A stretch of DNA of 64,000 bases, taken from IMG/VR virus record IMGVR_UViG_3300013947_000004; one strand, written 5' to 3'. Below, piece by piece: positions 19,633 to 62,157 of this stretch (position 1 is its first letter; each line of letters opens with the position of its first letter). A model generated the notes under the pieces. That model saw only the letters and a list, made by a program, of their open reading frames with translations, did not search any database and had not been told where the DNA came from. The translations under genes were made by a program, and so were the position numbers. Origin of the DNA: a virus.

Positions 19633-22600
19633 CTACATATAATTTTCTTCTAACCTTGACGTATCTTTATTGTACGTAAATTCAGCAATATTAGGGCCAT
19701 ACATCCCATCACGTGCCTTATCTATCTTAATCCGGGTCACATTCTCTAACTGTTGCTTTTCTTCTAAAGATAAGTTAGGGTCTTTCCCCGGACGCCAAAG
19801 CAACATGATAATATCAGCTGATGCTTCCAAATCTCCGGTTAGTTTGAGTTGGGTCATATTTGGTTCCCCATATGGGTTCCCCCCACGGTTTAACTGAGAT
19901 AACATAACAAAAATAATATTATTTTCTTTTGCTATTGCTTTCATTTTAGTAGCTGATGCAGATGCACCTTCAAAATCAGAAGTCCCTTTTAAATAGCCAA
20001 AATAATCGACAAAAACCATGTCAACGGGGGCACCCATTAAGTTTTTAGCATTAACTAACCGAATCCGTTTTTCAATATCATTTATAGTATAATTGTTGTT
20101 GTCAAAAATAAGCAGGTGATTTTGTAACTTTGATATAATGTTTTGAACTTGAGTATCACTGCTTCTAATATACCCTTCTACTTCTGCCATTGAACATCCG
20201 ATAAGTTTCGCTACACATCGTTCTATAAGTTTTCCTTTTGGCATTTCTAGTGAGAAAAATACAACCCTCATTTTATCTTGACAAATAGCACGAAGCATAG
20301 CTTCGATAGCGAAATCCGTATTATGAGTTACGATGTAATTATTGCATAGATATGTATGTTTTGGACTGTCAACAGTAATACACTGCATTTCTTTCTTTTC
20401 TTTTAGTTTTTCTATAGAAACAATAGCCATTTTACTCCTATCTACCCTACGGGAAATATTCCGACGTTTATTCCATCTTTCAATATGCTTTTTACTAGAG
20501 AACCAAACGTCTGAAATTTTTTGTATTACCAAAGTGTATTCGGGGATACTCGATTTACCTTTCCTTACATGATAATGCATTTCACATCTTACACCTAAAG
20601 AATTTAAAAGCGTGTTCAGCCCATCTATTAATCTTTTTGATTTGCTAGAGAATTGGGTAAAACCCCTGTCGTTAACACATCCGTCCGTGTCGATAAGGCC
20701 ACGAACTAATTCTATGCGATTTTCTATAGAGTCGAACAAATATTCATCAGGAATAAATTTTTCGCAACTCTTTGCCCCGTGAAATGTTTCTCTGAGGTAA
20801 TTAACAAAAGGATTATTTTTCCCTCCGCAAAAACACATTTGATTGGGTTGTCCTTTATGAAGGTGCCAATGGCCGAAACTAGCCGTTAAATAGGAAAGCT
20901 TCTCTTGAATGTCCACCTCTGGGTTGGTAAATGTGATTTGCCTTTGAGATAATCCACCATCTCCCAACATAAGCCCTATGACATAAGGGGAAATAATGTG
21001 TTCTCTCTTTTTGTAATTAACTTCTGAGCAAACGGGTATATACAAATTCCACCCCTGTTGCCCTGCCGTTCCTCTTTTTAATTTATACTCAGACATAATA
21101 TCCTTCAAGGGTTTAACAAGCCAAGATTTACCTTTCATTATGCGATTTTGAGTACTGAATTTCCATAAATGGTCTTCGCAACAATCAACATAACTACCAT
21201 CCTTAAATGTTACTCGGTACACATCTTTTTCCCCTTGGGGAAACACATGAGTAACTTTCGTTTCTTTTCCATCTTCATCAAAGACTATATCCCCAACTTT
21301 TATGTCCCCCATTTTAACAAACCCAAAGGGCGTTGCAATCAAAGAGTCTAAAGTTAGAGCTTTACCTACACCACTATAAGCTCCGATAACAACAACCTGC
21401 TTCTTTTCAACTCTACGGATGCAATTATCTATTTGTTCAAAATGGGTTTTAAAACCCCCGGTAGTGTATATCTGACGCAAGTCATTCAAACATTCGCCAA
21501 TGTCTGACGCTTCTTTTAAAATATCGTCGGAATCCTGCCCAATAGTGTTAAAGTATTTCTTCAAATCTTCTGTATCTTTGTGCCATCTTTCAGCCAAGAA
21601 TTTAATAATATCAAGCCGAATCATTTCAGAACGGACGGTTGGAAGGTAATTTTCTGCTTTTTGATATTCTTCTTCTATGGTAGAACACCCCGCTAAGAGC
21701 AATCTCATGACGTACTTGTCGATATGCTCCGTTGGGAGAGTCTTAGGATTAACCCCGGCAAGGAGGAGGTCATTCATGTCTTTAAATTCTTCTGGGACAA
21801 TCCCTACCCGAACTTGCCTTCCACTATCAATAGAACGGAAGTAATCACGGACTCTAGGTAAACGTTTTTTGCCCGGTTCGTCATTATCCGGGAATATAAC
21901 AATAGACGTTTCCCTCCGTAAGTATCTACTCAAAGCCTTTATTTGGTCACGATGTATTTCATTTGAGCAATAAGCAACCGTTGGGAGTCCCATTTGATAA
22001 CCACTGATAGCGTCCATGTACCCTTCAACCACGTACACACTATCTTTGATTAAACGTCTCGCCTTATCAAGCCCATACAGGAAAGAGGATTTGTCAAAGA
22101 GAATGTTGTTCCGGCTGTTAATGTATTTCGGCTTTCCGTCAAATCTACGTACAGCAATCCCAACAGTTCTTCCGTTTGGGTCAATAAGAGGAATTGTGAC
22201 CTTCCCTTCATACCCTCCGAGTTCGAACGTTTTGATTGTTTCGGCTGTAAAACCACGTTTTTCTGTAAGATATGAACGGACATCTTCTACCCCAGCTACC
22301 CCTTTCTGCTTTTTACTGTCCATTTTCGCTTCTAAAGCTTTTTCATTCTGGTAGGTAGCATCATCTACCAAGCTAATGTTAAGCATGTTAGCAAGCTTCT
22401 CAATAGCCATATTGTACGTAATGTGGTCATAGTCTGCCACAAAATTAATGACATCGCCACTGGAATTGCACGAAAAACAATAGTACATTCCTTTGTTATC
22501 AACGAGCATCGACGTAGGATTACTTGAACCATGGATGGGGCAAGCACATCTCCACCCATTACCACTTCTTGTTAATTCGATGTTCGCATATTCTTGAATA

Positions 22601-22662
22601 AATTGGGGAAAATCTATCTTCTGTCTGATAATATCTTTAATGTCCATTTCTAATTCCTCCAA
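19633..22662 (-). CDS. DnaG-type primase fused to DnaB-like helicase, interrupted by an intein
   Basis: CHC2 zinc finger CPIHG...CFSC, and TOPRIM VVEGYMDAIS...FPDNDEPG. Walker A GAYSGVGK|T is split by the intein. A DnaB-like C-terminal domain follows. Confidence 0.9.
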   Translation of the reverse strand: MEELEMDIKDIIRQKIDFPQFIQEYANIELTRSGNGWRCACPIHGSSNPTSMLVDNKGMYYCFSCNSSGDVINFVADYDHITYNMAIEKLANMLNISLVDDATYQNEKALEAKMDSKKQKGVAGVEDVRSYLTEKRGFTAETIKTFELGGYEGKVTIPLIDPNGRTVGIAVRRFDGKPKYINSRNNILFDKSSFLYGLDKARRLIKDSVYVVEGYMDAISGYQMGLPTVAYCSNEIHRDQIKALSRYLRRETSIVIFPDNDEPGKKRLPRVRDYFRSIDSGRQVRVGIVPEEFKDMNDLLLAGVNPKTLPTEHIDKYVMRLLLAGCSTIEEEYQKAENYLPTVRSEMIRLDIIKFLAERWHKDTEDLKKYFNTIGQDSDDILKEASDIGECLNDLRQIYTTGGFKTHFEQIDNCIRRVEKKQVVVIGAYSGVGKALTLDSLIATPFGFVKMGDIKVGDIVFDEDGKETKVTHVFPQGEKDVYRVTFKDGSYVDCCEDHLWKFSTQNRIMKGKSWLVKPLKDIMSEYKLKRGTAGQQGWNLYIPVCSEVNYKKREHIISPYVIGLMLGDGGLSQRQITFTNPEVDIQEKLSYLTASFGHWHLHKGQPNQMCFCGGKNNPFVNYLRETFHGAKSCEKFIPDEYLFDSIENRIELVRGLIDTDGCVNDRGFTQFSSKSKRLIDGLNTLLNSLGVRCEMHYHVRKGKSSIPEYTLVIQKISDVWFSSKKHIERWNKRRNISRRVDRSKMAIVSIEKLKEKKEMQCITVDSPKHTYLCNNYIVTHNTDFAIEAMLRAICQDKMRVVFFSLEMPKGKLIERCVAKLIGCSMAEVEGYIRSSDTQVQNIISKLQNHLLIFDNNNYTINDIEKRIRLVNAKNLMGAPVDMVFVDYFGYLKGTSDFEGASASATKMKAIAKENNIIFVMLSQLNRGGNPYGEPNMTQLKLTGDLEASADIIMLLWRPGKDPNLSLEEKQQLENVTRIKIDKARDGMYGPNIAEFTYNKDTSRLEENYM
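20320..21360 (-). mobile_element. intein (347 aa) with LAGLIDADG homing endonuclease, class-3-like
   Basis: Begins ALTLDS right after GVGK and ends VTHN before T+1. Has LMLGDGG and LVRGLIDTDG motifs. Block B reads CEDHLW, block F has C, block G reads THN. Confidence 0.85.
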
Positions 22663-22789: not shown

Positions 22790-23005
22790 TTATCCGCTGG
22801 GCGGTTTCTTCACTTTTCGTGGGAAAGGAATTAATTTTCCTTTGAGGTTCATCATTTTAGTAATTTCATCAACCATCTTTTCTTCTATGCCATTTAAAAT
22901 TTCCAATTCCCATTCATTCGCTCCAGCTCTCTTTTTGTCAAGGCGGGACTTTGCGTTAATGTACAATCCTAAGAGTGCTTGGTGGACTTTATAATCTGTG
23001 TTCAT
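22790..23005 (-). CDS. hypothetical protein (71 aa)
   Basis: ORF track. Confidence 0.5.
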   Translation of the reverse strand: MNTDYKVHQALLGLYINAKSRLDKKRAGANEWELEILNGIEEKMVDEITKMMNLKGKLIPFPRKVKKPPSG

Positions 23006-23018
23006 AATCTCGACCTCC

Positions 23019-23312
23019 TTATAACTCTAATAGCATGTCAACCGAATACGGGATTTTGTTGCTTAACGGTTTCCTGACTTTATTCTTGTAGGAATCAATG
23101 TTCCTCCATACTGAGTTCCTATGGAACAATTCACTAAGAGGAGAACCATATGGGAGAGGATGCTCTTTCATGTAATTTAACAACTCCGCCTGTTCTTCTT
23201 GTGGATGTTCCCCTATTTGTCTGGAGACCCTATCATAGTTTTGTTGAGACCAGTGTCTCTGTCCCATCGTTTGGTCAAGAAACAGCTTAACCAAGGAATC
23301 CTGTATGTTCAT
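23019..23312 (-). CDS. hypothetical protein (97 aa)
   Basis: ORF track. Confidence 0.55.
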   Translation of the reverse strand: MNIQDSLVKLFLDQTMGQRHWSQQNYDRVSRQIGEHPQEEQAELLNYMKEHPLPYGSPLSELFHRNSVWRNIDSYKNKVRKPLSNKIPYSVDMLLEL

Positions 23313-23328
23313 TTAAAACTTCCTTTCT

Positions 23329-23835
23329 TAATTAATTAATATCTACGCAGTACGTCATTCCTGCGTAGATACATCTTACTTAAATGCAAGCCGTGATAAA
23401 TGCATTTGTTGGATTAAAACCTAACCAAGGAAAACATTAATTAAATAATATCCATTGCCGAGGTAACTCGGCTTGGGATAACCCGAATGAACCGAAGGTG
23501 AATGAGGGTAGGGATTTTAAAAACTTAGCCAAGAAAAAAATTAAGTAATTAATATCCCCCGCTCAAAGCTGGGGGATACTATTCTTTTAATTAATAAGGT
23601 ACGTAGTACCTAATCCTAATTTCTTCCTTGGTTAATTAATTAAGTAATATCCCAAGCCAAGGTAACTTGGTAAGGGATATACCTTACGAATGAGCGAAGC
23701 GAATGAGTAAGGTTAGGATTAAATAAATAACTAAAAAAATAATTAATTAAATAATATCCATCACCGGGTTTAACCCGGTTTGGGATATACCGACCGAATG
23801 AACGAAGTGAATGAGGAAGGTTTTTCTTTACATTC
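23329..23835. repeat. array of five ~105-bp units, each with an ATATCC...GGATAT-based hairpin (possible origin or sRNA array)
   Basis: Hairpins at 23340-23371, 23448-23480, 23553-23578, 23647-23680 and 23754-23788. TTAATTAA blocks separate the units. Units 2, 4 and 5 carry a conserved GAATGA..CGAAG..GAATGAG box. Confidence 0.85.
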
Positions 23836-24043
23836 TCTTTTCCCAATTCTCTTAAAAGATTCTTTTATAGGTTTCTTTTTTAAAGATTCTCTTTTAGTGC
23901 GTAATCCTTAATACCATTTGAAGCAGGTCGTTTTATACCAATTTTTAAAAATTAGTATATCTTTGCAAAAATTAATTCATATCAAAAGGTGGTTAAAGTT
24001 ACGTTTTCTGTTATGTCTAGTGCGTAACTTTTTACACCACTTT

Positions 24044-24526
24044 TTAGTCAAGTACAGCGGCCGGAGAATCCGGTTCCTCTTGATAATAATCGTATCCCAG
24101 AGTGCAATATTTATTCGGAGGAAGAGTCCATTTTTTGTCTTGGTTTATATAGTACTGATAACTAACATTATTCCCGGTGTATATCTTCATCTTGCAAATA
24201 GCATTTGCGGCTATTAAATCGTCCAGAGCTTTCTTGATGGTCTTCTCCGCCATTCCTACCATCTTGGCTATATTCCCATTTCCATACAAACATACAGGCG
24301 TATCACCAAACCTATTTAGTGTTAAGAAATAAAAAACAACTTTTGCAGACGTTGAAAGTCCAGAGTTGGTAACACGTCGCAACGAAGTTATACTTGGTTT
24401 GTATTTTACAAATGGGGCTTTCGTTGATATTAACCACTCGAATTTTTCCCCGTTATTGTATAACACCCATTTATCTAGCCATTTACTGTAATTGTATTTT
24501 TCGATTTTCATATGCATCTTCTCCAT
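24044..24526 (-). CDS. winged-helix DNA-binding protein (replisome-organiser/initiator-like)
   Basis: NIAKMVGMAEKTIKKALDDLIAANAI is HTH-like; next to the repeat-rich gap. Confidence 0.45.
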   Translation of the reverse strand: MEKMHMKIEKYNYSKWLDKWVLYNNGEKFEWLISTKAPFVKYKPSITSLRRVTNSGLSTSAKVVFYFLTLNRFGDTPVCLYGNGNIAKMVGMAEKTIKKALDDLIAANAICKMKIYTGNNVSYQYYINQDKKWTLPPNKYCTLGYDYYQEEPDSPAAVLD

Positions 24527-24768
24527 TTCTTATGCCCAACAAAAAACTTACTTTCTATAAGACTATTTTCCTCTAGTATTTTCAAAGCTCTAACAATAGT
24601 TCTTTCTGAGATAAAGTCAACTTCTTTGTGTATGTCATGTGCGGATATTTGAATGAAGGGGTGACCTTCGAAAGACACCCCTCTATCTTCAATACCCTGT
24701 TTAATTGCAGCATAGACAATAGCACAATTAAGACCGACTCTTTTTGCTATATTGATGTCTATCTCCAT
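24508..24768 (-). CDS. winged-helix DNA-binding protein (86 aa)
   Basis: DFISERTIVRALKILEENSLIE is wHTH-like. Confidence 0.45.
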   Translation of the reverse strand: MEIDINIAKRVGLNCAIVYAAIKQGIEDRGVSFEGHPFIQISAHDIHKEVDFISERTIVRALKILEENSLIESKFFVGHKKWRRCI

Positions 24769-25753: not shown

Positions 25754-25782
25754 ATAATATTACTTATATGTGGTTTTGTCAA
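25754..25782 (-). promoter_or_regulatory. sigma-A type promoter of the leftward early operon
   Basis: Minus strand reads TTGACA, 17 nt, TATTAT. The inverted repeat AAAGTAC-N15-GTACTTT (25717-25745) lies just downstream. Confidence 0.6.
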
Positions 25783-27558: not shown

Positions 27559-30500
27559 TTATGCTTGCTTTGCTTCCATAAACTCAAATATTCTGTTGTT
27601 TTTTACTTTCATAATATAAACTTTGTGTTTTTCAAATTGTTTGTATTTGTCGTTGAAAATGACCAAGTCTTTTACATAATCGTTATCTCTAACTTTCACA
27701 AAAGCCATTGGTTTGCCAGTTTTGGTCTTTCTTGCTTTTACGTCTAGAACTTCGTACCCAAAAATAGTTACATTATTCACTAAAGACATGTTGTAATTTT
27801 GAAAAATATTCCCAAAACTGACACCTAAAACCTTCGACTCTTCCTCTTGCTCGTTATACGAACCTTGTGTATATTTAAACAAACCTTTAGATTTTCTTTT
27901 ATCTTTCGCCCATTCAATGAATTGTAACATTTCTTCACGATTTCCTTTAAAAACTCCAGCTTTTACTAAGTTTGACAAACAAGTTTTATTTACAGATATA
28001 AACCGTTCTATAAATTGCTTAAATTCAGTTGGGGCATCTTTAGGGAACTCATTTTTCCCCACGCCTGCGATACAATTTAAACCAAGGGTGATTGTTGGGC
28101 CATCTTCGTCATAGTCCGAGAAACAATTCTTATGCTTGAGCGTCGGGGGGAGAATTTTAATTCCATCCTTCTTGGCTTCCATTACATATCCTGCTAGCTT
28201 CCCCTTGTCCTTACAGTTGGAGTCTATAACAGACGCCCAAAATGCGGCAGGGTAATGACATTTGAGGTACGCTGTAACCCAAGCTGTCATCCCATATGCG
28301 GCAGAGTGGGAATTACTAACAATAATCCCGTTATTCACAAGGACTGTATGGTATGGATGTTCCATTTCTATATCATAAACGCTTTCCATTCCTATAAGTT
28401 TTATAGATACAATTTTATCTTCTTCTAGTTCGTATCCATTCCCGCCTTGTCTTGTTCTTCCCATTTTATAATGCTCCTTTTTATGACAGGAAGTACATAA
28501 CCATTCTAAATTTTCTGGAGAATTATCTTTTCTATCCCCGTTTTTGTGGTGCATTTCAAATCTAGTTTCTCCATCGTAGGATTTACCGCATACAGCACAA
28601 GGGTACTGATTGTAAATTGCAACCTTTTTAGCTTCTTCGAATAAGTACCAATTACTGTCCATTTTTTCTTGGAATCCCTTTTGTCCTTTTTTGGGAATAT
28701 TATCTGAGATACATTCTCTGTTTGTGAGTCGGTAATCATGGCTAACCTTCACTCTATCCCCTTTTATATAGACGAGTTCTCCTACCTTTAAATCCTTTAA
28801 CATTTTCTTACCTTTTCTTGTTGGGAATTTATGATTGGCCGTGCATTTTACATATTTCCCAGACTCTGTTCTTACTTCGTACACGTAGTTCTTCCCAGAA
28901 TAAAAAATGTCAACAATTTTATTTCGTTTGATTTTCCCATCTATAATAGATAACCCATATCCGTAACCATATCTATTGTACTTTTCCCACAAACTGAGGT
29001 GCTTATTTTCTTTTGCCCACTTTTTATCTGTTTTTGTTTTATACATTTCTTCGAGAGTTAAGGGTTTCCTTTCATTTATATTCCTATACAGGGTTGTTTC
29101 TCCAGACAAGCAATGGTTAAATCCATAGGAGGCAAATGTGACTATGTTATCCGTGAGGTCTTTCATTTGTTTTTCTGTATACCCTCTCTGGACACCTCTT
29201 TTAATCATATCTGCTATGACTGGTTGCATTTCATCTTTAACCTTTCTCCCTATGATACGTCGTAGATTGTCAGCTTCTCCGAGTGAGTATCCGCATATCT
29301 TTTGTGCAATCTGCATGATTTGTTCTTGGTACACGATAACCCCTTCTGTATCTTTTAAGATTGGTTCAAGGTCTGGAATATCGTATATAGTCGGCTCTTG
29401 ATGATTTCTGCGACGGAGGAACGTTTCTGCCATTCCACTATCGAGAGGCCCCGGTCTGCCCAAGGCTACCACTGAGGACAAGTCCTCTACGTTCTTTATC
29501 CCCATCCTCAGAACTATTCCTGTCATAACATTTGATTCAATCTGGAAGCAACCTGCAGTGTTCCCCCGACGCAACATTTCTGCTGTATCTTTGTCATCAA
29601 TGGGAATATTGGCTATATTTAAAGAATCAATTCCAGCTCTATGTTTTGTTTTTTCTATAATGTCAAGAGTTTCTAGCCCAAGTATATCAAGTTTTAATAA
29701 ACCTTGAGCTTCTAGCTGATGAAAGTCATGGCACACAACCATATTATCTTTCTGTTTTTCAATAGCTGTCCAATTAGTAACATCTTCTGGGCATACAAGA
29801 ACAGCCGATGCGTGGCAACCATAGGAGATTATGTGGCCTTTAAATTTGAGGGCAAGCTCTTTCCATTCTTTTTCCTCTTTGGTTTTGGCACCCATATCCT
29901 CTACATTAACTATGTTTTTGGATTTGGCTATACGGATTTTGGGTTCAATTCCCAAAGCCTCTCCAGCTCTCTGTATTGCTGATTTATCTTGGATATAGTT
30001 AATAGTACGGGCTTGGTATACTTCCCCATATTTGCTCTTGATATATTCTATTAATTCTTGTCTTCTTGGTGTAGATACATCGGAATCGATGTCAGCTGGA
30101 GTTACACGTTCTGGATTAGCAAAACGTTCAAATACGAGATTGTATTTGATTGGGTCGAGTTGCGTAATCCCCATTAGATAGGCTGTTAAACTCCCAACAA
30201 CAGACCCCCTACCTAACCCCATAGGAATGCCGGATTCTCGGCAATGTTTTAACATGTCGTCAATAATGCAAAAATAGTTGAGGTAGTTTAGTTTATTTAA
30301 TACGTCAAATTCATGCCGTACTTGCTTTATGTATTGGTTACTATTGGGAAGTTTAGAAATTCCCAGTCTCTTAAATCCCTCGTTACACCTCTTCTTTACG
30401 TAAGTTGCAGGGTCATCACAAAATACGGGGTAGTGTTGTCCCCCGAACTCAATTTCCACATTACATTTATCAACAATTTCTTGCACATTTTCAAGAGCTT

Positions 30501-31206
30501 TAGTAATGTCCATGCTATTGCTTTTAAACCATTTCACAATATCTTCTTCACTTTGGAGATAATAGTCATCAGATACATAGTACTGAGAATCATCACCTAA
30601 ACCTAGCCACATCTTATGTACTGGAATATCTTCCTTGTTCACATAGTGACTGTCAAGAGTAACAATCGTCTTCCCTAAATTTTCCCATTTTTTATTGTAC
30701 TCTAATTGCTCTGGAAAATTATGGGGCTGAATTTCTACATATAAATCATCACCAAAAATAGATAATAGGCGGGAATACATTTCATCTGCGTTTTCTGCAC
30801 TAAGTGGCCCAGCTACACACGCTGTTGTACATACCAAACCTTCGTGGTACTGTTCCAGAGCTTCAAAACTAATTCTCGGCTTACGGTAGAAATGTTCATG
30901 GGCGTATGTGTCCAACTTCATCATATTTCTGTAGCCTTTAATATCTTTGGCTAAGATTACGAGATGGTACGTGTCACACCCATTTACCGTGATTTCAGAA
31001 GCTAAATAAAATTCACACCCCAAGATAGGTTTTACTCCTTGTTTTTTGCACTCTTGGTAAAAATCTATTATCCCTGTGCATGTCCCATGGTCGGTTATTG
31101 CTAAAGCCGGGTATCCAAGGTCTTTAGCTCTACCAACTAGGTCGGGAATTGTACAAAATGCATCATGGAGGCTATAGTCCGTATGCTGATGTAAGTTAGA
31201 AAACAT
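27559..31206 (-). CDS. dnaE: DNA polymerase III alpha subunit (DnaE-type) interrupted by an intein
   Basis: PHP domain HQHTDYSLHDA...ITDHG, then GLGRGSVVGS and ADIDSD. The conserved YGFNH|SHSAAY motif is split by the intein. Confidence 0.9.
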   Translation of the reverse strand: MFSNLHQHTDYSLHDAFCTIPDLVGRAKDLGYPALAITDHGTCTGIIDFYQECKKQGVKPILGCEFYLASEITVNGCDTYHLVILAKDIKGYRNMMKLDTYAHEHFYRKPRISFEALEQYHEGLVCTTACVAGPLSAENADEMYSRLLSIFGDDLYVEIQPHNFPEQLEYNKKWENLGKTIVTLDSHYVNKEDIPVHKMWLGLGDDSQYYVSDDYYLQSEEDIVKWFKSNSMDITKALENVQEIVDKCNVEIEFGGQHYPVFCDDPATYVKKRCNEGFKRLGISKLPNSNQYIKQVRHEFDVLNKLNYLNYFCIIDDMLKHCRESGIPMGLGRGSVVGSLTAYLMGITQLDPIKYNLVFERFANPERVTPADIDSDVSTPRRQELIEYIKSKYGEVYQARTINYIQDKSAIQRAGEALGIEPKIRIAKSKNIVNVEDMGAKTKEEKEWKELALKFKGHIISYGCHASAVLVCPEDVTNWTAIEKQKDNMVVCHDFHQLEAQGLLKLDILGLETLDIIEKTKHRAGIDSLNIANIPIDDKDTAEMLRRGNTAGCFQIESNVMTGIVLRMGIKNVEDLSSVVALGRPGPLDSGMAETFLRRRNHQEPTIYDIPDLEPILKDTEGVIVYQEQIMQIAQKICGYSLGEADNLRRIIGRKVKDEMQPVIADMIKRGVQRGYTEKQMKDLTDNIVTFASYGFNHCLSGETTLYRNINERKPLTLEEMYKTKTDKKWAKENKHLSLWEKYNRYGYGYGLSIIDGKIKRNKIVDIFYSGKNYVYEVRTESGKYVKCTANHKFPTRKGKKMLKDLKVGELVYIKGDRVKVSHDYRLTNRECISDNIPKKGQKGFQEKMDSNWYLFEEAKKVAIYNQYPCAVCGKSYDGETRFEMHHKNGDRKDNSPENLEWLCTSCHKKEHYKMGRTRQGGNGYELEEDKIVSIKLIGMESVYDIEMEHPYHTVLVNNGIIVSNSHSAAYGMTAWVTAYLKCHYPAAFWASVIDSNCKDKGKLAGYVMEAKKDGIKILPPTLKHKNCFSDYDEDGPTITLGLNCIAGVGKNEFPKDAPTEFKQFIERFISVNKTCLSNLVKAGVFKGNREEMLQFIEWAKDKRKSKGLFKYTQGSYNEQEEESKVLGVSFGNIFQNYNMSLVNNVTIFGYEVLDVKARKTKTGKPMAFVKVRDNDYVKDLVIFNDKYKQFEKHKVYIMKVKNNRIFEFMEAKQA
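28312..29112 (-). mobile_element. intein (267 aa) with HNH endonuclease domain
   Basis: Starts CLSGETT and ends IIVSN before S+1. Internal CAVCG...HHKNGDRKDNSPENLEWLCTSCH is an HNH motif. Confidence 0.85.
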
Positions 31207-33243: not shown

Positions 33244-36200
33244 CTACTCACTAAATGCTTTAGCTGATTTAGCCAAACTCTGAAGTTCTTTATTGTTCTT
33301 CGGGATAGATTTCATCTTCATGTCTATGGAAGTCGTATCTTTTGTTTTTAGAACTTTCACAATTTGGGAATCTGTCATACCATAAATTTTAAGAGCATCG
33401 TAATTTTCCCCATTCGGGTTTTTTATATACTCTTGTTTAGCTTTAGCGACTTCTGCTGTATACTTTTTCTTCATAACCCCTAAAACTTTATTGGCGTCAG
33501 CGGCGTTATTTTCGCTAACAGGTTTAAATCCTAAGAGCTTCATGAATCTGTCCGTTGCCGAATAATGGGAAACTGTATCCCCGTAGCTATTTTTGTAGTC
33601 CCCAGAAATGGCACTTTGGATTTGCCCTGCACGAGGAGCTATCTGTTTGAGGACTCCAGTGAATGCGGCAGGAACACTTTCCGCTCCCATAATAGCTTGA
33701 CCAACACCTTTTGCTGTACTGTACGTCGGGCCTAAACTTGGAGTAAGGGCATCACCCATCCCGATACGAGAGGATAAGTTAACTCCCGCTAATGTGGGAG
33801 CTCCATACAGAGCTACGTTTACGAGTGCTTTCTTAGAAGCACTTCCCCCTGCCCAGTCAATCATAGCTTTTCGCATCATAAGCCCCGGGCTTGTCCCAGT
33901 AACAGAGTCGATGACATCATCAAATAAATCAGCCGCTGGTGCCCCTGTCGCCCCTGTAAGAATCAACATTGGAACGAGGAATTTCACATTCTCTTTCAAT
34001 GTATTATTTCTCATAAAGTTGATTGTAAACAGAGGATATTTCTGGAACTGTAAGAGTAGTTTACCAGTCTGCCCCGCCATAGCAAACGCCTGAGGGGAAT
34101 TAACAGGGCTATAGTCAAAGTTCGTTTCTGTTACAGTTTTCTTCGCATAATCCATTGCGTACTTTTCTTTTACATCTTCCATACTAATCTTTCCGTTAGA
34201 TTTCTTTACAATGGATTTATAGAGAGCATCTTTTTTATCTTTTGGTAACGCATCGAAGTTATCTTTGCCTTTTATATATGCTCCAATAGCCGTGGCTTTA
34301 CGAGCAAAAATATCACCTTTGTTGAAGAAATACATGGACTTTTCTGCAACATCTTCGAGGGAATGCCCACCGAGTACTTTCCGTTTCTTTTCAAATGCTC
34401 CCGGTGTATGTCCAATATCTTCAGCCTCTATTGCAATGCTTCTATCATTAATCCCGACGTGCTTAAATAACTTGTCATACGTATCTTTCTTTCCTTGGAG
34501 CTTAATCCCTTGAAGCAGGTACTTTTCGCCAATTTTAGCGTTGGCATTCAAGAGCTGTGCCGCCTGCACAATCATAGCAGATGGGTTTGCCATACCTAGT
34601 TTTGTGTAGTTCTGTGTACGAATAACTTTTCTTGTAAGGTCAAAATACGGGGTGTCTGTGTGATGGCGTCTAGCAAATCTCCCAATAGCCCCCGTCCTAT
34701 TTTCTATCTTTCCAATAAAGTCTGTCATGACACTGTTAACAAGATTATCAAAAGCAGAGACGGAACGAGGAGCTTCTATCGTCTTAATATATGTTTTCAA
34801 GAATTTCTGTTCGTTTGTAGCAGGAGGGTCGTTTACATCTCTTCCGTACATTTCTTTGTAAGCCGCTGTTGCTTCCGCCTTAAACTTAGCTTTAGCTACA
34901 TAGTTAGCCATTGTGCCAAGGTATCTCCATGTAGAGTCTTCGACATTTTTACTAAACCCATTCATCGTTTCGGGGTTATCTAACCGACCTTGGAAGTAGG
35001 GGTTAAACTTTGCTTTCATATTGGCATTGTTAATTAACATAGATAATTCATCTTTACTAATTGTTTCAGAGGTTCTTCTGCGTAGTTTATCTATAAGCTT
35101 GGTATTTTTCATTTGAGCTTTTACCATCTCTACAACTCGGTTATGAATCGCATTCTTGGTATTTGAGTTCCATTTCTTCATAATCGTATTTGCTCTATCC
35201 ATAACATCTTTGACGGGGATAACATCTTTATCTTTGAAGATTTTAGACAACATAGCTCGCTTTAACTGATTGTTATATTCTCCTTCTGCAACATCATCGC
35301 TGTCTTTTAAATAACCTTCTTCTCTCAATTCTTCTATTTGCTTTGGGGTGAGCCGCTCTGAGCTATTAAGTTTTGTAGATAATGCGACTGTGTCCATGGG
35401 AGTCATTTTGAAAGATTTAGCTTTTATTTCTCCATCCTCTGCCCCCTTATTAATATTCTGAACGTATTCTTCTGCGTCCAAAGCGTTGTAGAAAGAATTT
35501 GTTCTTACCCAGCTACCGTCGGAATCTTTTTCCATAACGACGTAGGGCAAGTGGACGTGTGGGAAATATCCATTACGTTTCTTAGGTAGTTTCGTAGCCG
35601 CACCTGCGTCTATTGCCGCACGGACAGAATCGTTATAAATATCGTCAAAGAATTTTTCATTCTTCGCAAATGCATTAATTACACTCTTGATATTTTCTGG
35701 TTTGTACGAGGAATCCCCGTATCTCCCGTCAATCTGGTTTAACATTCCAGTAACAGCCCGTGCATAATTTCGTTTAGCGAAACTGTTAGCGGACTCTTCG
35801 CTCCTGAATGCGGAACTCCCTTTGGAGAGGGCATATACAGTAAAGCCACGGTTTCTTTCGGAGCCAGCATCTTCCAAAGAATCTCGGAGGGAGCCGACCA
35901 TTTTATATTCCCCAGATTTTTTAAGCTCTGCTACTTTTTTAGCGGCTTCCACACTTGACTTGTAATGTTCTATGTACCCGTTATGGTCTAAGGCTAAGTA
36001 TACATTGCCAATCTTCTGTACCTGCATAGGAGAACGACCCATTTTATCTGCGTGCAGAATAAGTCTATCTAATGCCGCTATCTGGGATTTGTTCAATCCT
36101 TTACGGATGTCAAGGTATTTCTGCGTATATTCTAATGTCTTGTCCCGACTCTTCCTATACGCTTCATCAGCTAATTCATAGATGTGTCTTGCCTTCTTCG

Positions 36201-39200
36201 GTAGGTATTTTTCAAAAATTTCTTGCGGATTTTTTAAGAATCTGCCGATAGTCCCCAACTTGTTATCAGACTTAATTTTACTGCCAATAATGGAATCTAA
36301 AGCTCCACGGATAATGGCACTTTTTGTGGCGTCATTAGCATCTTTCACTCCGTGTTTCCGTACTTGTTTTCCGACGATTTCTTGTTTTTCCTTCTTTAAC
36401 TGAGCTTTACCAACCTGTTGCATTGGGGAGCTTTCTCTTTCATATACTTCTCCAGATTTGATTTTACTAAATACTTCCTGCACCGATGGTGTGCGTTCGG
36501 AAATAATGCCAAGTTTGGATGCCATATCTTTAATCTTATTCCAAATGCTCTTGAATATGCCAGATTTCGGAATTTCAGATTTGCCTAACGCCCAATCACG
36601 GTATGCGTCAGCTTGCACTTCTTCATTAGTCCCAAAAGCTTTTTCGAGAGCTTTTATTTCGGAATCTTTCAACCCCATCATTTTGGCCACATGGAACGCT
36701 TCGTGGAAAGCCGTTCCTTTCCCTGTACCATTAGCCAACTGAACATAGATATTATCCCCCTTGTTTTGAGTGTATCCGAGGACTGTTACATTCTCCGACC
36801 CTTTAATTCCATGTTCTTCTTTTGCTCTTTGTAACTGCTCCCCAGTAAGGAATACCTTGTTAACAATATCAAAGGTTATCTTTCTACCGTTAGGCATTGT
36901 AAATTCTACAGAAGTGTTTGTCACGTTGGTTATTTTGGCGTTGGGGATTATATCTCGGATTTCTTTTTTTGTATTTTCCATGTGAGATTGTGGCACATCC
37001 CCAAGTTGGGATTTGCCAAAAATTCCATCAAGGACTTCTTTTTCTTCTTTGGAGATTTTCTTCCCTCTTTGTCTTATATTCTTTCTTGCTTCTAATGCCT
37101 TTTCATCATCCGCTTTTTTTATTTCTTCTGATTTTTCAGACTCTTTTCTTTGTATGTCGTAAGCAAGTTTTTCTTTCCCTGTCAGGGATTCTCTAAATCC
37201 GTCAGGCTCCTTCCCCCCAGTAGCGAGGGCGTTTTTGATAGTGACGGTTTTCCCATCTTTGCCAATTTCTATAGAAGTCTTCGAGCTGGATGTAATCTTA
37301 TGTTCCTTTTCGAGGTAGTCCAACACATCATCTTTTTCCGCTTTGCTTAAAGGGACGTCTTTCCCGTGCCAATCTTTTACTTTCCCAGAGGGGATGGTTA
37401 CTTTTGCGTCGAAACTGCCTTCCCCGTCTTTGAATTTAGAATTGGAAATAGTAACAGGATTCGATTTCTTCGATTCCAATCCCTCTACTTTAATTCCCAT
37501 GCTTTCTAACTTAGCTAATTCTTCTTTGGAGTATGTCTCCAACTGTCTCTTTTGTAAGGCAATCTTCCCAGATTTTTTAGCCTTTTTAATTTCGTTTTCT
37601 GCGTCATAGTATTCTTTTACACTGTTAGGGATAACGTCAGGATTATTCAGTCCTTTATCATTTACTTTTTGTCCTTTGAATTTATCGTAAAGAGGTTGGA
37701 ACTCTTTCTTAATTTTAGCAACTTCATCCGGATATAAGAGAGAGTCTATAACAGCGTTACGGTTTCTGTTAGTGGGAACTTTGTCTCCATGGATAGCTTC
37801 ATGCACTCTCTGAATAAACCCTTTCACCTTTTTAGTCCCGCTCATAGCCATACGTGCATTTTTTCTATCTTTAACCGATGTCTTGGGGGTAGGTGTAATC
37901 TGTTCACTAACTTTCGGTGTATTCTGAGGTAGTTGTTCTACTTTCTGAGCTTTGGGAGTTTTTTGAACTTTCCCACCATCTTTAACAGTATTGATTGCAT
38001 CAATAACCCGTTTACGGTCTTTAAGAGAAAGTTTCTTTAATTCTGCGCTAACTGAAGCTCTATTTTCAGGAGTGCTAGGGTAACTACTGGAATCCTTTCC
38101 ATTTTCTTTCAGGTCTTTAATCATAGCATTAGCTGATTTTTTAGACTCTTTCATTACCTTAGCTCTTGCATTTTTTAACTGCTGTTTTTGGTTAACGGAA
38201 ATGGGTAAGGAAACAATTTCTTTGTTATTTTCGTCCATGTATTGAGACTGGACACCGTTCTTCTCTAAATCTTCTTTAATGGATGCTACCTTGTTGAATA
38301 CCTGTTTCCGTTGCATTTTTTTGCTTTGTTTTGTAGCTCTATTTGTTTCAGCCGTGATAACGTTCTGAATTTTTTCATGAGAAGCATCTACCCCAAGTTC
38401 GGATAATTTCTGTTGTGCCGTTTCGGATAATTTACCGTCTGGGGCGTAGTAAATAGAATTAGTGCCATTTTCCCGCAAATCTTTTTTGATTTCGTTTTTA
38501 ACGTCCTTTACTTTAGCTTCTTGGTTAGTTCTTGCTTCTCTAGCCCTTTTTTCTTTTTCTCTTACTTGTTCCCCATATTGGTTAATAAGAGCTACATCAG
38601 GGGACGGAGATGTTGCATTGGAAACGTATATTTCGGGGGGAGTATTCCCCAAAGCTTTATCACGAGCAATTAAATCGTTTGCACTGGCTCGGTTAGCTTC
38701 GTCTACTGCCCGTTTATTGATAATATCAATAACTCCTTTTGCATCTGCTGGAGTTTGGATTTCTGGGAAGTCTGGGGATTTAATTAAACCTTCAATAGCC
38801 TGTTTACGTTCTTGTCCTTTTAATTCGTGTGGGGATTCAGACACTGGGTTTACAGAAAGGCTACGGAAATTTCCGTCAGCATCGGTTGTACCTGCTAACT
38901 GCAAAGCCATATTAGCCAAAGTTTGATTCTTTTCGAACGTGGGGTCAACATTTCCATTTTCGTCTGTAAAGAGAGTTCTTTCGTAAGTGTCACGAGGAGA
39001 TACTGTGCTTAATGTATTTGTTAATTCGTTTACCCTTGCGTCAGTAGGCAAATCAGCTTCACTTGTAATTTCATCATTTACAGTTATTGGACTATTTGTG
39101 ACAAGGTTGTTGTAGAGAGTAGTCGCATCTTCGTTGCTTAAACCCGCTAAAGAATCCCCTTCTGCATTTTCTCGGAGTTCTTCTCTTGCTATATTTATTT

Positions 39201-40365
39201 CTGGGTTTTGGATTTCCCCGATACTGCTTTGTTCTTTGCTATCCTCAATAGATTCGCTAATACGCCCACGTCGATGACCAACCGAACCAAGAAATGCAAG
39301 AGGCCCGAACCCAATAGCGGCTTGTGCCATTTGGTCTTTAGAAGAATCCTGCATATCGAATGGATTGTATTCTATCGGCGTATCGTTGATAGAATAGTTT
39401 TCCAACTCATTCTGCAATCCTTCCGTGTAAGATTCGGCGGCAATACCCGGAATACCACGGGTAGCAAACCGTTTAAGTAATCCCGTATCTGACCAGTCGG
39501 CAACCTTTTCACCTGCATTAGCAATGGCATTTACAAGTCCCGAACCTTCTTTTTCTGCAATCCGTTCACCAGAAGACAATAATCTGCCGGGGGCTTTCAT
39601 AACCCCTTTAACCATACCCATTTCGATACCGTTTTGGATTGTACCTAAGAGCATGTTTACGCCGAAGTCGGTCATTGCGCTATCCATTGCAGAATCTCTA
39701 TCCATCCCTTGAGAGATAGCATCTTGGTATGTCTGTCCAGTTTCCCTAGTAGCATCAATAAAGCCGCCGATGGCGTTCTTGGCGGCAAATTCTCCAACAA
39801 CCTTACCGCCATCAGCTAAAGCTCCAAGAAGTTTACTTCCACCCGATACAGCTCTGCCTACTTCGCTAGCTTTTTCTGCGAGAGAAGCCGCACGCCCTGC
39901 CATGCCTACTGCACGGACGGCACCTCTAGCACTAAGACTTGCAACAGAACTCATCCCGCCAGTAATAGCTAATGCGGCTAAATCAGGAGCTACATTACCA
40001 ACAGTCATACCTATTGTGCTTGTTAAACCTTGCGGGTCGGTAACATATTCCCAAGGATTGCTCTTTATATCTTCCCAAGAATATTCTTTTGTGGGTGCTC
40101 TGCCATATTCTAAACTCCGCCCAAGGTTAGAGAGTCCCTCCCCGATACCAATATCGGGAGTGCCTAATTTATCGCCAAGGACATCTAAGCCAGCACCAAA
40201 AGTGTCTAAAGTTCCGCCGAGTCCGTATATTGCTGAATTTAAATAACTGTCAAGGAATCCCCCATCCCCGTAATGGGGGGTAGGGGCTAAGTCTGGATTA
40301 AGGGCGTCATTTCCGAACGCTGAACTTACAGCATAACTATATGGGTATGCACCTAAAAGTGCCAA
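33244..40365 (-). CDS. giant virion or ejected protein (2373 aa), tape-measure/internal-core-like, with HExxH zincin motif
   Basis: TTG start. Gly/Ala-rich hydrophobic N-terminus, a K/E-rich region with three ~55-aa KDLxENG repeats, FHEAFHV at nt 36691-36705, and hydrophobic segments near the C-terminus. Confidence 0.6.
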   Translation of the reverse strand: MALLGAYPYSYAVSSAFGNDALNPDLAPTPHYGDGGFLDSYLNSAIYGLGGTLDTFGAGLDVLGDKLGTPDIGIGEGLSNLGRSLEYGRAPTKEYSWEDIKSNPWEYVTDPQGLTSTIGMTVGNVAPDLAALAITGGMSSVASLSARGAVRAVGMAGRAASLAEKASEVGRAVSGGSKLLGALADGGKVVGEFAAKNAIGGFIDATRETGQTYQDAISQGMDRDSAMDSAMTDFGVNMLLGTIQNGIEMGMVKGVMKAPGRLLSSGERIAEKEGSGLVNAIANAGEKVADWSDTGLLKRFATRGIPGIAAESYTEGLQNELENYSINDTPIEYNPFDMQDSSKDQMAQAAIGFGPLAFLGSVGHRRGRISESIEDSKEQSSIGEIQNPEINIAREELRENAEGDSLAGLSNEDATTLYNNLVTNSPITVNDEITSEADLPTDARVNELTNTLSTVSPRDTYERTLFTDENGNVDPTFEKNQTLANMALQLAGTTDADGNFRSLSVNPVSESPHELKGQERKQAIEGLIKSPDFPEIQTPADAKGVIDIINKRAVDEANRASANDLIARDKALGNTPPEIYVSNATSPSPDVALINQYGEQVREKEKRAREARTNQEAKVKDVKNEIKKDLRENGTNSIYYAPDGKLSETAQQKLSELGVDASHEKIQNVITAETNRATKQSKKMQRKQVFNKVASIKEDLEKNGVQSQYMDENNKEIVSLPISVNQKQQLKNARAKVMKESKKSANAMIKDLKENGKDSSSYPSTPENRASVSAELKKLSLKDRKRVIDAINTVKDGGKVQKTPKAQKVEQLPQNTPKVSEQITPTPKTSVKDRKNARMAMSGTKKVKGFIQRVHEAIHGDKVPTNRNRNAVIDSLLYPDEVAKIKKEFQPLYDKFKGQKVNDKGLNNPDVIPNSVKEYYDAENEIKKAKKSGKIALQKRQLETYSKEELAKLESMGIKVEGLESKKSNPVTISNSKFKDGEGSFDAKVTIPSGKVKDWHGKDVPLSKAEKDDVLDYLEKEHKITSSSKTSIEIGKDGKTVTIKNALATGGKEPDGFRESLTGKEKLAYDIQRKESEKSEEIKKADDEKALEARKNIRQRGKKISKEEKEVLDGIFGKSQLGDVPQSHMENTKKEIRDIIPNAKITNVTNTSVEFTMPNGRKITFDIVNKVFLTGEQLQRAKEEHGIKGSENVTVLGYTQNKGDNIYVQLANGTGKGTAFHEAFHVAKMMGLKDSEIKALEKAFGTNEEVQADAYRDWALGKSEIPKSGIFKSIWNKIKDMASKLGIISERTPSVQEVFSKIKSGEVYERESSPMQQVGKAQLKKEKQEIVGKQVRKHGVKDANDATKSAIIRGALDSIIGSKIKSDNKLGTIGRFLKNPQEIFEKYLPKKARHIYELADEAYRKSRDKTLEYTQKYLDIRKGLNKSQIAALDRLILHADKMGRSPMQVQKIGNVYLALDHNGYIEHYKSSVEAAKKVAELKKSGEYKMVGSLRDSLEDAGSERNRGFTVYALSKGSSAFRSEESANSFAKRNYARAVTGMLNQIDGRYGDSSYKPENIKSVINAFAKNEKFFDDIYNDSVRAAIDAGAATKLPKKRNGYFPHVHLPYVVMEKDSDGSWVRTNSFYNALDAEEYVQNINKGAEDGEIKAKSFKMTPMDTVALSTKLNSSERLTPKQIEELREEGYLKDSDDVAEGEYNNQLKRAMLSKIFKDKDVIPVKDVMDRANTIMKKWNSNTKNAIHNRVVEMVKAQMKNTKLIDKLRRRTSETISKDELSMLINNANMKAKFNPYFQGRLDNPETMNGFSKNVEDSTWRYLGTMANYVAKAKFKAEATAAYKEMYGRDVNDPPATNEQKFLKTYIKTIEAPRSVSAFDNLVNSVMTDFIGKIENRTGAIGRFARRHHTDTPYFDLTRKVIRTQNYTKLGMANPSAMIVQAAQLLNANAKIGEKYLLQGIKLQGKKDTYDKLFKHVGINDRSIAIEAEDIGHTPGAFEKKRKVLGGHSLEDVAEKSMYFFNKGDIFARKATAIGAYIKGKDNFDALPKDKKDALYKSIVKKSNGKISMEDVKEKYAMDYAKKTVTETNFDYSPVNSPQAFAMAGQTGKLLLQFQKYPLFTINFMRNNTLKENVKFLVPMLILTGATGAPAADLFDDVIDSVTGTSPGLMMRKAMIDWAGGSASKKALVNVALYGAPTLAGVNLSSRIGMGDALTPSLGPTYSTAKGVGQAIMGAESVPAAFTGVLKQIAPRAGQIQSAISGDYKNSYGDTVSHYSATDRFMKLLGFKPVSENNAADANKVLGVMKKKYTAEVAKAKQEYIKNPNGENYDALKIYGMTDSQIVKVLKTKDTTSIDMKMKSIPKNNKELQSLAKSAKAFSE

Positions 40366-62083: not shown

Positions 62084-62157
62084 TGGCGAGGACTGATAGA
62101 TTCGAACTACCATTAAGGGTTTTGGAGACCCCTGTTCTTCCATTAAACTAAATCCCC
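62084..62157 (-). tRNA. trnW: tRNA-Trp (anticodon CCA), CCA end encoded
   Basis: Folded by hand: 7-bp acceptor, 4-bp D stem with GG loop, anticodon stem GGGGU/ACCCU, loop CUCCAAA, T arm GGTAG-TTCGAAT-CTATC, discriminator G, then CCA. Confidence 0.85.

Follow-up and report, generated by a model that had tools for sequence, protein, structure and literature searches.

A phage array of covarying stem-loop units carries a box hairpin conserved in many unrelated phages

The gap and its array of five units

The viral DNA of IMG/VR record IMGVR_UViG_3300013947_000004, analysed here as a stretch of 64,000 nucleotides (nt) that we call the window, represents a near-complete phage genome of about 65 kb. 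Almost every gene between 8 kb and 64 kb is carried by the minus strand. A non-coding gap (23313-24043) sits within the recombination and replication operon, whose order is: a small helix-turn-helix protein, Erf, two initiator-like proteins of 86 and 160 amino acids (aa), the gap, proteins of 97 and 71 aa, and a primase-helicase. The gap contains an array of five units of about 105 bp (23329-23835). Each unit is composed of an AT-rich block and a hairpin with the foot TATC...GATA, and three of the units add a second hairpin, here called the box hairpin. The box is a motif that many unrelated phages conserve and for which Rfam 15 has no family.

The five units, which had been predicted from the sequence of the window, are present far above chance. 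The AT-block family AATTAATTAATATC occurs in five copies with a spacing of 109/104/95/107. Hairpins of the form ATATCC...GGATA gave seven matches on both strands against 1.2 expected, all but one of them inside the gap, and none of 100 shuffled sequences reached this number; TTAATTAANTAATATC gave six matches (1.0 expected), five of them inside the gap. Pattern and covariance-model searches of the window located units solely at 23328-23822. The hairpin foot TATC/GATA and the flank ATATTAMTTAATTAA are conserved while the distal stem is free, and the units are 64-75% identical over 56 nt. The G+C content of the array is 34.5%. On the plus strand the sequence TAATATC, which is -10-like, is invariant ahead of every hairpin, and the loops are C-GAA-G (three times), C-GTA-G (once) and GTAA (twice).

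Unit 1 (23328..23371) consists of the AT block TTAATTAATTAA and a hairpin at 23340-23371 with the arms TATCTACGCAG and CTGCGTAGATA enclosing the loop TACGTCATTC; on the gene-sense strand it ends 11 nt ahead of the ribosome-binding site of the 97-aa gene. An accessory hairpin, AAATGCA...TGCATTT, lies between units 1 and 2 (23382..23407), and in 8 of 11 relatives one of its pairs is a U.G wobble when read on the gene-sense strand. In unit 2 (23436..23509, plus strand; 66.4 bits with the covariance model described below) the AT block is followed by a hairpin at 23448-23480 with the distal part CCGAG GTAA CTCGG and by a box hairpin at 23481-23509, which reads ACCC / GAATGA / ACC-GAA-GGT / GAATGAG / GGT. 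Unit 3 (23540..23611) has an AT block, a GC hairpin TATCCCCC...GGGGGATA at 23553-23578 and a small hairpin AGGTAC GTA GTACCT at 23597-23611; its loops are freely variable or inverted in relatives. Unit 4 (23632..23713, plus strand, 98.1 bits) comprises an AT block, a hairpin at 23647-23680 (CCAAG GTAA CTTGG) and a box hairpin at 23681-23713, which reads ACCTTAC / GAATGA / GC-GAA-GC / GAATGAG / TAAGGT. Unit 5 (23740..23830, plus strand, 102.5 bits) comprises an AT block, a hairpin at 23754-23788, a box hairpin at 23789-23821 with the box proper at 23796-23815, and the T run TTTTTCTTT.

The box follows the formula stem, GAATGA, N-CGAAG-N', GAATGAG, stem. It had been assigned to units 2, 4 and 5, and it is indeed exact at 23688 and 23796 in units 4 and 5; the version of unit 2 (23485-23506) is 2 nt longer. 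Of the enclosing arms, ACCC/GGGT and ACCTTAC/GTAAGGT pair as predicted, and those of unit 5 (ACCGACC/GGAAGGT) do so imperfectly.

Some other features ascribed to the array need correction. The spacing had been compared to ten helical turns, but it equals the unit length, and since there are relatives that lack all or part of unit 4, such phasing is not conserved. Nor is the gap free of open reading frames (ORFs), since mechanical ORFs of 43-99 aa overlap it. One of these, of 68 aa (23640-23846), covers units 4 and 5 and would be disrupted by the unit 4 indel of relatives. A linker word, TTCCTTGGTTA / CTTGGCTAAG, was seen at 23288-23298, 23422-23432, 23529-23538 and 23624-23634, which places it in the spacers that separate units and in the opening codons of the 97-aa gene. 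Words related to it (CTCGGTTAGG) are present in the gaps of the L069 clade.

From relatives with a primase approximately 90% identical to that of the window we collected 17 distinct versions of the gap. Their comparison divides the 730-nt gap, originally treated as one element, into the array, which is real, and a separate initiator-proximal module (23836..24043), which is very AT-rich and has repeats of its own. TAGTGCGTAA occurs there twice as predicted (23895-23904 and 24018-24027), TGGTATWAA is found on the gene-sense strand at 23932-23940 and 23908-23916, and repeats of the AAGAGAAT type are also present. With 26% G+C, 23817-24016 is the second-lowest 200-bp window of the 64 kb. The initiator-proximal module exists in at least four unrelated versions (the window, L076, L320 and L329 types), each with its own short repeats and each travelling with an initiator-like protein of 153-160 aa that is 58-59% identical to that of the window; for comparison, identity is 73% for the 97-aa neighbour and about 90% for the primase. 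The hairpin array is unchanged across all four types of iteron and initiator.

Because its repeats are replaced together with the initiator variant, 23836-24043 appears to be a specificity module, either of initiator and iterons or of repressor and operator, and is a likelier origin or operator than the array. Conversely, the constancy of the array across four types of initiator and repeat argues that its units are not iterons. Among the hallmarks of an iteron-type origin the locus has an adjoining initiator gene, albeit recognised by weak PHROG matches, and an AT-rich region at 23817-24016, but initiator-specific repeats occur only in 23836-24043 and not in the five array units. The proposal of an origin built from phased hairpin and iteron modules does not agree with this arrangement, in which the iteron-like repeats lie outside the array.

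Pairing and cassette behaviour in related phages

The array folds well beyond shuffled sequence on each strand (z about -10 each), and fold energy showed no strand asymmetry in any clade. A covariance model was built from six units and searched against the window and 27 related or control loci. It found units 5, 4 and 2 in every close relative with 64-102 bits, units 1 and 3 more weakly, and an architecturally equivalent unit in the clade with 70% identity (L057 3783-3843); there was no further unit in the rest of the window. With 46 distinct units aligned, taken from the window and from related phages, double changes were seen in 18 of the 21 modelled pairs. In this alignment 86.6% of the paired cells were able to pair, compared with 30-45% after the partners had been shifted by 1-3 columns, and none of 500 shuffles reached the score. 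The alignment is fitted to the covariance model and takes in some reverse-strand hits, a bias from which comparisons of orthologous units are free.

These comparisons gave the same picture. In unit 1 orthologues, three phages fill one stem position differently, with G-C, A-T or T-A; the loop GAATGACGTR is conserved, and unit 1 of L077 has three further compensated pairs. In unit 4 of L320 the TATC-footed hairpin shows compensation at three pairs; in the box stem one pair is compensated and one is broken. The first hairpin of unit 2 has been swapped twice, in L076-type phages and in L077, for unrelated sequence that still pairs. Thus the pairing pattern is kept in the homologous gaps of related phages, and the conserved foot and complementary distal stems noted in the original prediction hold beyond the window. 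Since compensatory changes are found both across paralogues and across related phages, selection in the array acts on pairing rather than on a protein code, as had been proposed.

The units are gained and lost as cassettes. Unit 4 is absent in L076-type phages, and in L329 (a 65.5-kb genome with 211-fold coverage) a 37-nt deletion takes out the unit 4 box. Unit 2 of the L329 type, known from high-coverage assemblies, reads CAAAG and no longer has the G of the GAA loop. Which type of unit 2 and of unit 1 a phage carries is independent of its units 3-5. Between relatives, certain loops are found in inverted form (TAC/GTA, TTAAA/TTTAA). Within the clade with 70% identity, L067 is without two modules. 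Unit 5 is nearly invariant in all relatives, including those with replaced upstream DNA, and its plus-strand T run keeps a length of 5-7. Unit 5 is also where several independent contigs break. The ends of short contigs (L075 after unit 5; L326 and L327 from within unit 5) were considered as RNA ends and rejected as branch points of strain-variant assembly. Gain and loss of units, the swap of the module next door and the contig breaks at unit 5 place the array at a mosaic joint, at which it varies independently of the iteron module.

Two insertions were observed at the array. In L072 (approximately 2300-2578) an IS66-family element, recognised by a transposase C-terminus and the terminal repeat ...CCGCTTAC, is located inside one array hairpin, so that the array tolerates disruption in at least one natural genome. 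The junction in L072 had the appearance of an attP site but is the end of this element. In L077 an inserted, near-perfect promoter, TTGACC-17-TATAAT with a TG extension (241-269), separates unit 1 from the ribosome-binding site that serves the 97-aa gene; neither the window nor L076 has a counterpart.

More distant relatives of the primase (26-30% and 46% identity) have no comparable gap. In L336 and L337 (2201-5480; 46% primase identity) Erf, two small proteins and the primase are packed together without the gap, and no integrase occurs in the stretch examined. Among the loci examined, the combination of initiator, iterons, array and 97-aa gene is confined to clades that also have an integrase.

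The box hairpin in other phages

A scan of IMG/VR for GAATGANCGAAGNGAATGAG found 56 viral contigs with single matches each. The two N were complementary in all 56 (A/T in 42, G/C in 13 and C/G in one), and the covariance model scored these matches at 30-38 bits. The flanking stem differs by phage group, with AATTAC/GTAATT, CCC/GGG, ACATC/GATGT, ATACC/GGTAT, AATTGC/GCAATT and GCC/GGC as examples. Covariation was assessed over 22 contexts, namely 18 from IMG/VR and four units from the clade of the window. The pair of the mini-stem was AU in 11 contexts, GC in 10 and CG in one, and was never unpaired. The closing pair of the box was C-G in 21 and U-A in one, and the next pair was AU in nine, CG in seven, GC in two and UA in one. 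Overall 72% of the cells were paired against 19-37% with slid partners, and 0 of 500 shuffles reached the score.

A control scan with a 22-nt form gave 12 matches, mostly in coding sequence and with non-complementary NN, of which only two or three look real; this shows the appearance of chance matches. Degenerate box patterns gave only noise in viral and genome collections. Three of the 56 loci (L017, L021 and L052) are satellite-like arrays of GAATG / CGAAGCGAA words that hold the 20-mer and look like simple repeats, not like the box hairpin. A variant, GTTAC-GAGAGA-ACGAAGT-GAATGAG-TAAC, is present in jumbo phages of E. coli and Salmonella, for example 121Q. In Escherichia phage 121Q (L338, 248109-248135) the ATG within GAATGAG is annotated as the start of a hypothetical gene (517).

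The carriers of the box are diverse. The locus of the largest carrier group (L002) has SbcC-like, RusA-like, baseplate-hub and tape-measure genes, and in L027 the box lies between the major-head and tail-tube genes. Further contexts include contigs of 260-500 kb, positions next to tRNAs or after terminators, and myovirus-like phages. At L002 7300-7700 the box hairpin ends about 400 nt of hairpin-rich non-coding DNA between convergent genes; this region, which has no Rfam match, may be a larger uncatalogued RNA. Rfam 15 has no family in the gap of the window, either at the gathering threshold or at E <= 10, and none over the box in 14 other phage loci. The 20-mer and its complement were not found in the searchable literature.

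In these phages GAATGA is on the coding strand in eight of nine clear contexts, which are intergenic: after terminators, ahead of genes and between convergent genes. A plain hairpin often trails the box, with a C-GTA-G or C-GTAA-G loop on the GAATGA strand, and the plus strand of the window has the same loop types. It is on the GAATGA strand, too, that the half-boxes can face each other as G.A, A.G, A-U, U-A, G.A, A.G, giving one continuous irregular helix; tandem sheared G.A pairs are a familiar basis for such facing. The half-boxes can in this way extend the outer stem into a mini-stem of two or three pairs capped by the GAA loop, whereas the complementary strand would have pyrimidine-pyrimidine mismatches at these positions. 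Because of this facing and the shared loop types we assign the box of the window to the plus strand, which would make it antisense to the operon.

The bias towards the coding strand favours RNA. It does not decide between RNA and DNA, as the coding strand would also be the template of the lagging strand if genes run with the fork. It does speak against the earlier suggestion of minus-strand small RNAs (sRNAs) with a conserved CU-rich segment: GAATGA, not CTCATTC, is on the coding strand of the other phages, and no sigma-70-type promoter was detected in the gap.

Neighbouring genes and the phage

The genes adjoining the initiator-proximal end of the gap had been described as replisome-organiser-like, and PHROG searches agree, with weak matches to 'replication initiation protein' and 'DnaD-like helicase loader' (E 4e-6 to 1.3e-3). 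The 160-aa initiator-like protein (24044..24526, minus strand) is of the winged-helix, DnaD-like type (phrog_428, E = 3.7e-5) and differs between strains. The 86-aa protein (24508..24768, minus strand) is initiator- or helicase-loader-like (phrog_11233, E = 4.3e-6), and related phages have a protein of 86-91 aa at its position. Directly downstream of the array lies the gene of the 97-aa protein (23019..23312, minus strand), which has homologues in every gap-bearing clade examined. It had no family match, and its predicted structure (pLDDT 77) had no match in the PDB. The operon starts at a consensus-like promoter, TTGACA-17-TATTAT (25754..25782, minus strand), which was found at the same site in L076 and is the sole detected source of transcription through the gap.

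Other genes of the window encode a portal protein, large terminase, tail fibres, a DnaE-type polymerase, the primase-helicase, an Erf/Rad52 annealing protein, an integrase and an anaerobic ribonucleotide reductase. The window belongs to a temperate gut phage, which is a podovirus by its portal protein, similar to those of podoviruses. Ribosome-binding sites read by eye ahead of the 97-aa gene (AAGGAAG in the window, AGGAGG in L057), together with a primase relative that carries the name Megasphaera elsdenii, suggest as a lead that the host is probably a member of the Negativicutes, with Megasphaera or a relative of about 39% G+C as the candidate. A DNA search against isolated phages gave no match, nor did an IMG/VR search for close relatives with the two flanking small proteins.

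Both replication enzymes contain inteins. The primase-helicase (19633-22662, minus strand) has a LAGLIDADG-type insert and is 1009 aa long in the window compared with 657 aa in about 30 close relatives, and the intein of the DnaE-type polymerase (27559-31206, minus strand) contains an HNH domain. A single tRNA gene, tRNA-Trp (CCA) at 62084-62157 on the minus strand, adjoins the large terminase gene. Among the virion genes there is an ORF of 2373 aa (33244-40365, minus strand), for which sequence-level searches gave no PHROG match at E <= 1e-5, no Pfam match above the cut-off and no PDB sequence match below E = 0.19.

Possible functions and comparison with known systems

T4-type phages contain promoter/stem-loop cassettes, the PeSLs, which are clustered at variable joints (PMC4122927). 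The explanation we prefer, although tentatively, is that the array is likewise a set of stable stem-loop cassettes that work in folded form as RNA and also provide joints for recombination. A cassette would be composed of the AT-rich block, the TATC/GATA-footed hairpin with its free distal stem and, in three of five cases, the widespread phage box hairpin. The cassettes would fold as RNA, form transcript ends and resist or direct RNases, and the conserved purine-rich loop could be where a conserved partner docks. As repeats, the cassettes might also serve as joints for homologous recombination, through which the neighbouring initiator module would be swapped and units added or removed. Within this explanation we infer the action as RNA, the acting strand and the existence of a partner. 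It is conceivable, if somewhat doubtful, that the box is an uncatalogued structured motif across unrelated phages whose purine-rich loop is recognised by a single conserved partner (a factor of the host or a protein common to the phages), and that the three-copy array opposite the operon acts here as a decoy, a sponge or a cluster of antisense RNAs.

The array is more than a local oddity, because one part of it is a conserved and uncatalogued phage motif. If it were only an ornament of the origin side or of a spacer, its main value would be a better view of the make-up and exchange of replication modules in these gut phages. More important is a 20-base hairpin whose core is identical and whose stems covary across many unrelated phage lineages. 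A motif under such constraint usually marks a specific molecular partner, and the partner, if found, would be a new and widely used piece of phage regulatory or replication machinery. For annotators, the box is a new feature to recognise in phage intergenic DNA.

A number of observations weigh against cassettes that act as RNA. No sigma-70-type promoter was detected inside the gap on either strand, and in the window the box is antisense to the only predicted transcript. Both strands fold equally well, which fits DNA hairpins or a function of two strands at least as well as RNA, and the stems are nearly all Watson-Crick with about 1% G.U in the 46-unit and 22-context alignments. The hairpins are without the tails of T6-T9 seen directly after the stems of the phage's own terminators. 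The units are confined to one gap and are not dispersed like PeSLs. Finally, C-GAA-G and C-GTA-G triloops form extra-stable DNA mini-hairpins of a kind known at priming sites and in N4 promoters; for GCGAAGC and CCGAAGG the priming sites are those of G4 and RSF1010 (PMC13037366).

Several of these points are accounted for if the array is an accessory of the origin that works as single-stranded DNA. The initiator would melt the AT-rich iteron module, the AT blocks would unwind and the inverted repeats would fold, as cruciforms or on an exposed strand, to mark the site where the primase-helicase is loaded or primes, like the single-strand initiation (ssi) signals of the G4 type or of RSF1010. 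The array does have the initiator genes and their iterons on one side and the primase-helicase gene on the other, an order found in three clades. A protein that reads the base of a hairpin would be expected to keep foot and flank constant and to leave the distal stem free, the near absence of G.U and the equal stability of the strands fit DNA, and loop inversions such as TAC/GTA and TTAAA/TTTAA are typical of DNA palindromes. The TTAATTAA blocks supply TTA triplets, and Firmicute DnaG primases start at CTA/TTA. The plus strand also has GCGAAGC and CCGAAGG, the latter being the mini-hairpin of RSF1010 ssiA, and such hairpins are known at primase sites (PMC13037366). On the other hand, the box elsewhere occurs in contexts unrelated to replication (capsid and tail-tube genes, tRNAs, after terminators), the G of the GAA loop has been lost in unit 2 of the L329 type, the units are individually dispensable and the gap is missing altogether in relatives with 46% identity. 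We also know of no precedent for five tandem priming signals. We consider an accessory of this kind rather unlikely, although it ranks second among the explanations.

The arrangement also calls to mind a multicopy array of trans-acting sRNAs, in which a weak AT-rich promoter would drive each unit as a gene of its own, with one hairpin or two and a U-rich terminus, and the box would be a seed for host or phage targets or a protein sponge. Units of about 105 nt with sibling-like divergence resemble tandem sibling sRNAs, and the invariant TAATATC before every plus-strand hairpin could be the -10 element. However, the gap has only -10-like TAATAT or TATTAT sequences and no -35 element, and there was no promoter call. 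More in keeping with sRNAs, -10-like hexamers are found in other phages ahead of the box in 20 of 30 contexts compared with 9 of 27 on the other side, a contrast confounded by AT content and by the relatedness of the contexts. In favour of RNA, too, T runs follow unit 5 (T5-T7, conserved) and unit 3 on the plus strand, though no other unit; unit 3, strongly so in L076, is terminator-like, with a GC stem and an immediate U run. The best complement of the unit 4 box within the genome is GGAGCGAATGAATGGG (22891-22945, minus strand), inside the 71-aa gene; its -27.5 kcal/mol is about the extreme expected from approximately 12,800 windows, so that the search within the phage revealed no convincing target. 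Nor is there a match to an Rfam family. Trans-acting sRNAs are an improbable function of the array.

Much the same holds for the proposal that the hairpins are simply elements of the operon mRNA on its sense strand, as weak attenuators or as processing and stabilising hairpins for RNases, and set the ratio of erf and initiator expression to that of the primase-helicase. The only predicted transcript does cross the array on the minus strand, an AU-rich tract always comes after the hairpin in that direction, and the few wobble pairs (the U.G of the accessory hairpin, a G.U in the foot of unit 3 and four in the L057 clade) favour the sense strand. The promoter inserted in L077 between unit 1 and the downstream gene would be expected if the array blocks read-through. 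Yet the combination of GC stem and immediate U run was not found on the gene-sense strand, where a terminator scan flagged nothing beyond the small AGGTAC hairpin and the unit 4 inner stem, and the tails are unlike those of the phage's own terminators. Moreover, the box would here be read as its complement, whereas other phages have GAAUGA on the coding strand, and termination has no need of a conserved foot sequence. We regard this, too, as an unlikely role.

Decay of a tandem duplication, given originally as the fallback, or selfish palindromic repeats without phage function would explain why linkers look like the opening codons of the gene downstream (TTCCTTGGTTA at 23288-23298 and 23422-23432), why units are gained and lost and why an insertion sequence is tolerated. 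This is very improbable, as stems are kept by compensatory changes, unit 5 is nearly invariant across clades with unrelated neighbouring DNA, the box is conserved in unrelated phages, and the copies are in this gap alone with no sign of mobility. Least probable are hairpin promoters of the N4 type on a single-stranded template: GAA-loop mini-hairpins are bound by the N4 virion RNA polymerase (PMC13037366) and the window has a podovirus-like portal and a 2373-aa protein in its virion region, but searches of PHROGs, Pfam and PDB sequences matched this protein to no polymerase and detected no virion RNA polymerase, there are no genes between the units, and the box is also found in myovirus-like and jumbo phages.

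Some further identities were considered and rejected. ToxI-like repeats of a type III toxin-antitoxin system do not fit units that are only 64-75% identical or a 97-aa neighbour without a family or fold match. The feet resemble TTATCCACA, but a DnaA-box cluster is contradicted by 0 matches at <= 1 mismatch in the gap, against 18 scattered elsewhere in the window. GATATTAAT, which matches the core of the phiX174 origin, was dismissed as a rolling-circle nick site, since no HUH or Rep domain was present among the ORFs scanned; none of 40 scanned ORFs of the window has a HUH or transposase domain.

Comparison with known systems shows partial likeness to several. The origin of lambda is composed of iterons, an AT-rich region and a palindrome. 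With such iteron-type origins of phages and plasmids the gap shares an initiator gene, initiator-specific direct repeats, an AT-rich stretch and inverted repeats, but here the iteron-like repeats lie outside the array, and the units of the array vary in number and not with the initiator. Listeria LhrC1-4 are tandem sibling sRNAs, and such siblings are similar to the array in their tandem units of about 100 nt, their conserved loop motifs and hairpins and their compensatory divergence; each of them, however, has a recognisable promoter and a canonical terminator, neither of which is evident in the array.

The complementary-strand origin of G4 and ssiA/ssiB of RSF1010 (PMC13037366, PMC8567376) likewise have a hairpin with a conserved foot and flank beside a primase gene, and they share GNA mini-hairpins with the array, CCGAAGG being present in ssiA and unit 2 and GCGAAGC in unit 4. 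The array differs by its five tandem copies, by a loop G that is not strictly kept and by a box that elsewhere is far from replication genes. REP/BIME elements and REPINs (PMC3116915) are also imperfect palindromes with a conserved foot that cluster in the intergenic spacers of operons, but they have hundreds of dispersed copies and a RAYT transposase, while the array is a single locus and no such gene was found.

PeSLs, or promoter-early stem-loops, are composite cassettes of promoter and terminator in T4-type phages (PMC2839356, PMC4122927). They have near-consensus -35 and -10 elements, flank ORFs and are dispersed over the genome, whereas the array has no -35 element and no ORFs between its units, is confined to one gap and possesses the additional conserved box hairpin. 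In other respects the two are alike. Both are short repeated cassettes made up of an AT-rich, promoter-like block and a stem-loop, both cluster in the most variable regions, where they are tied to indels and module swaps, and degraded copies exist of both.

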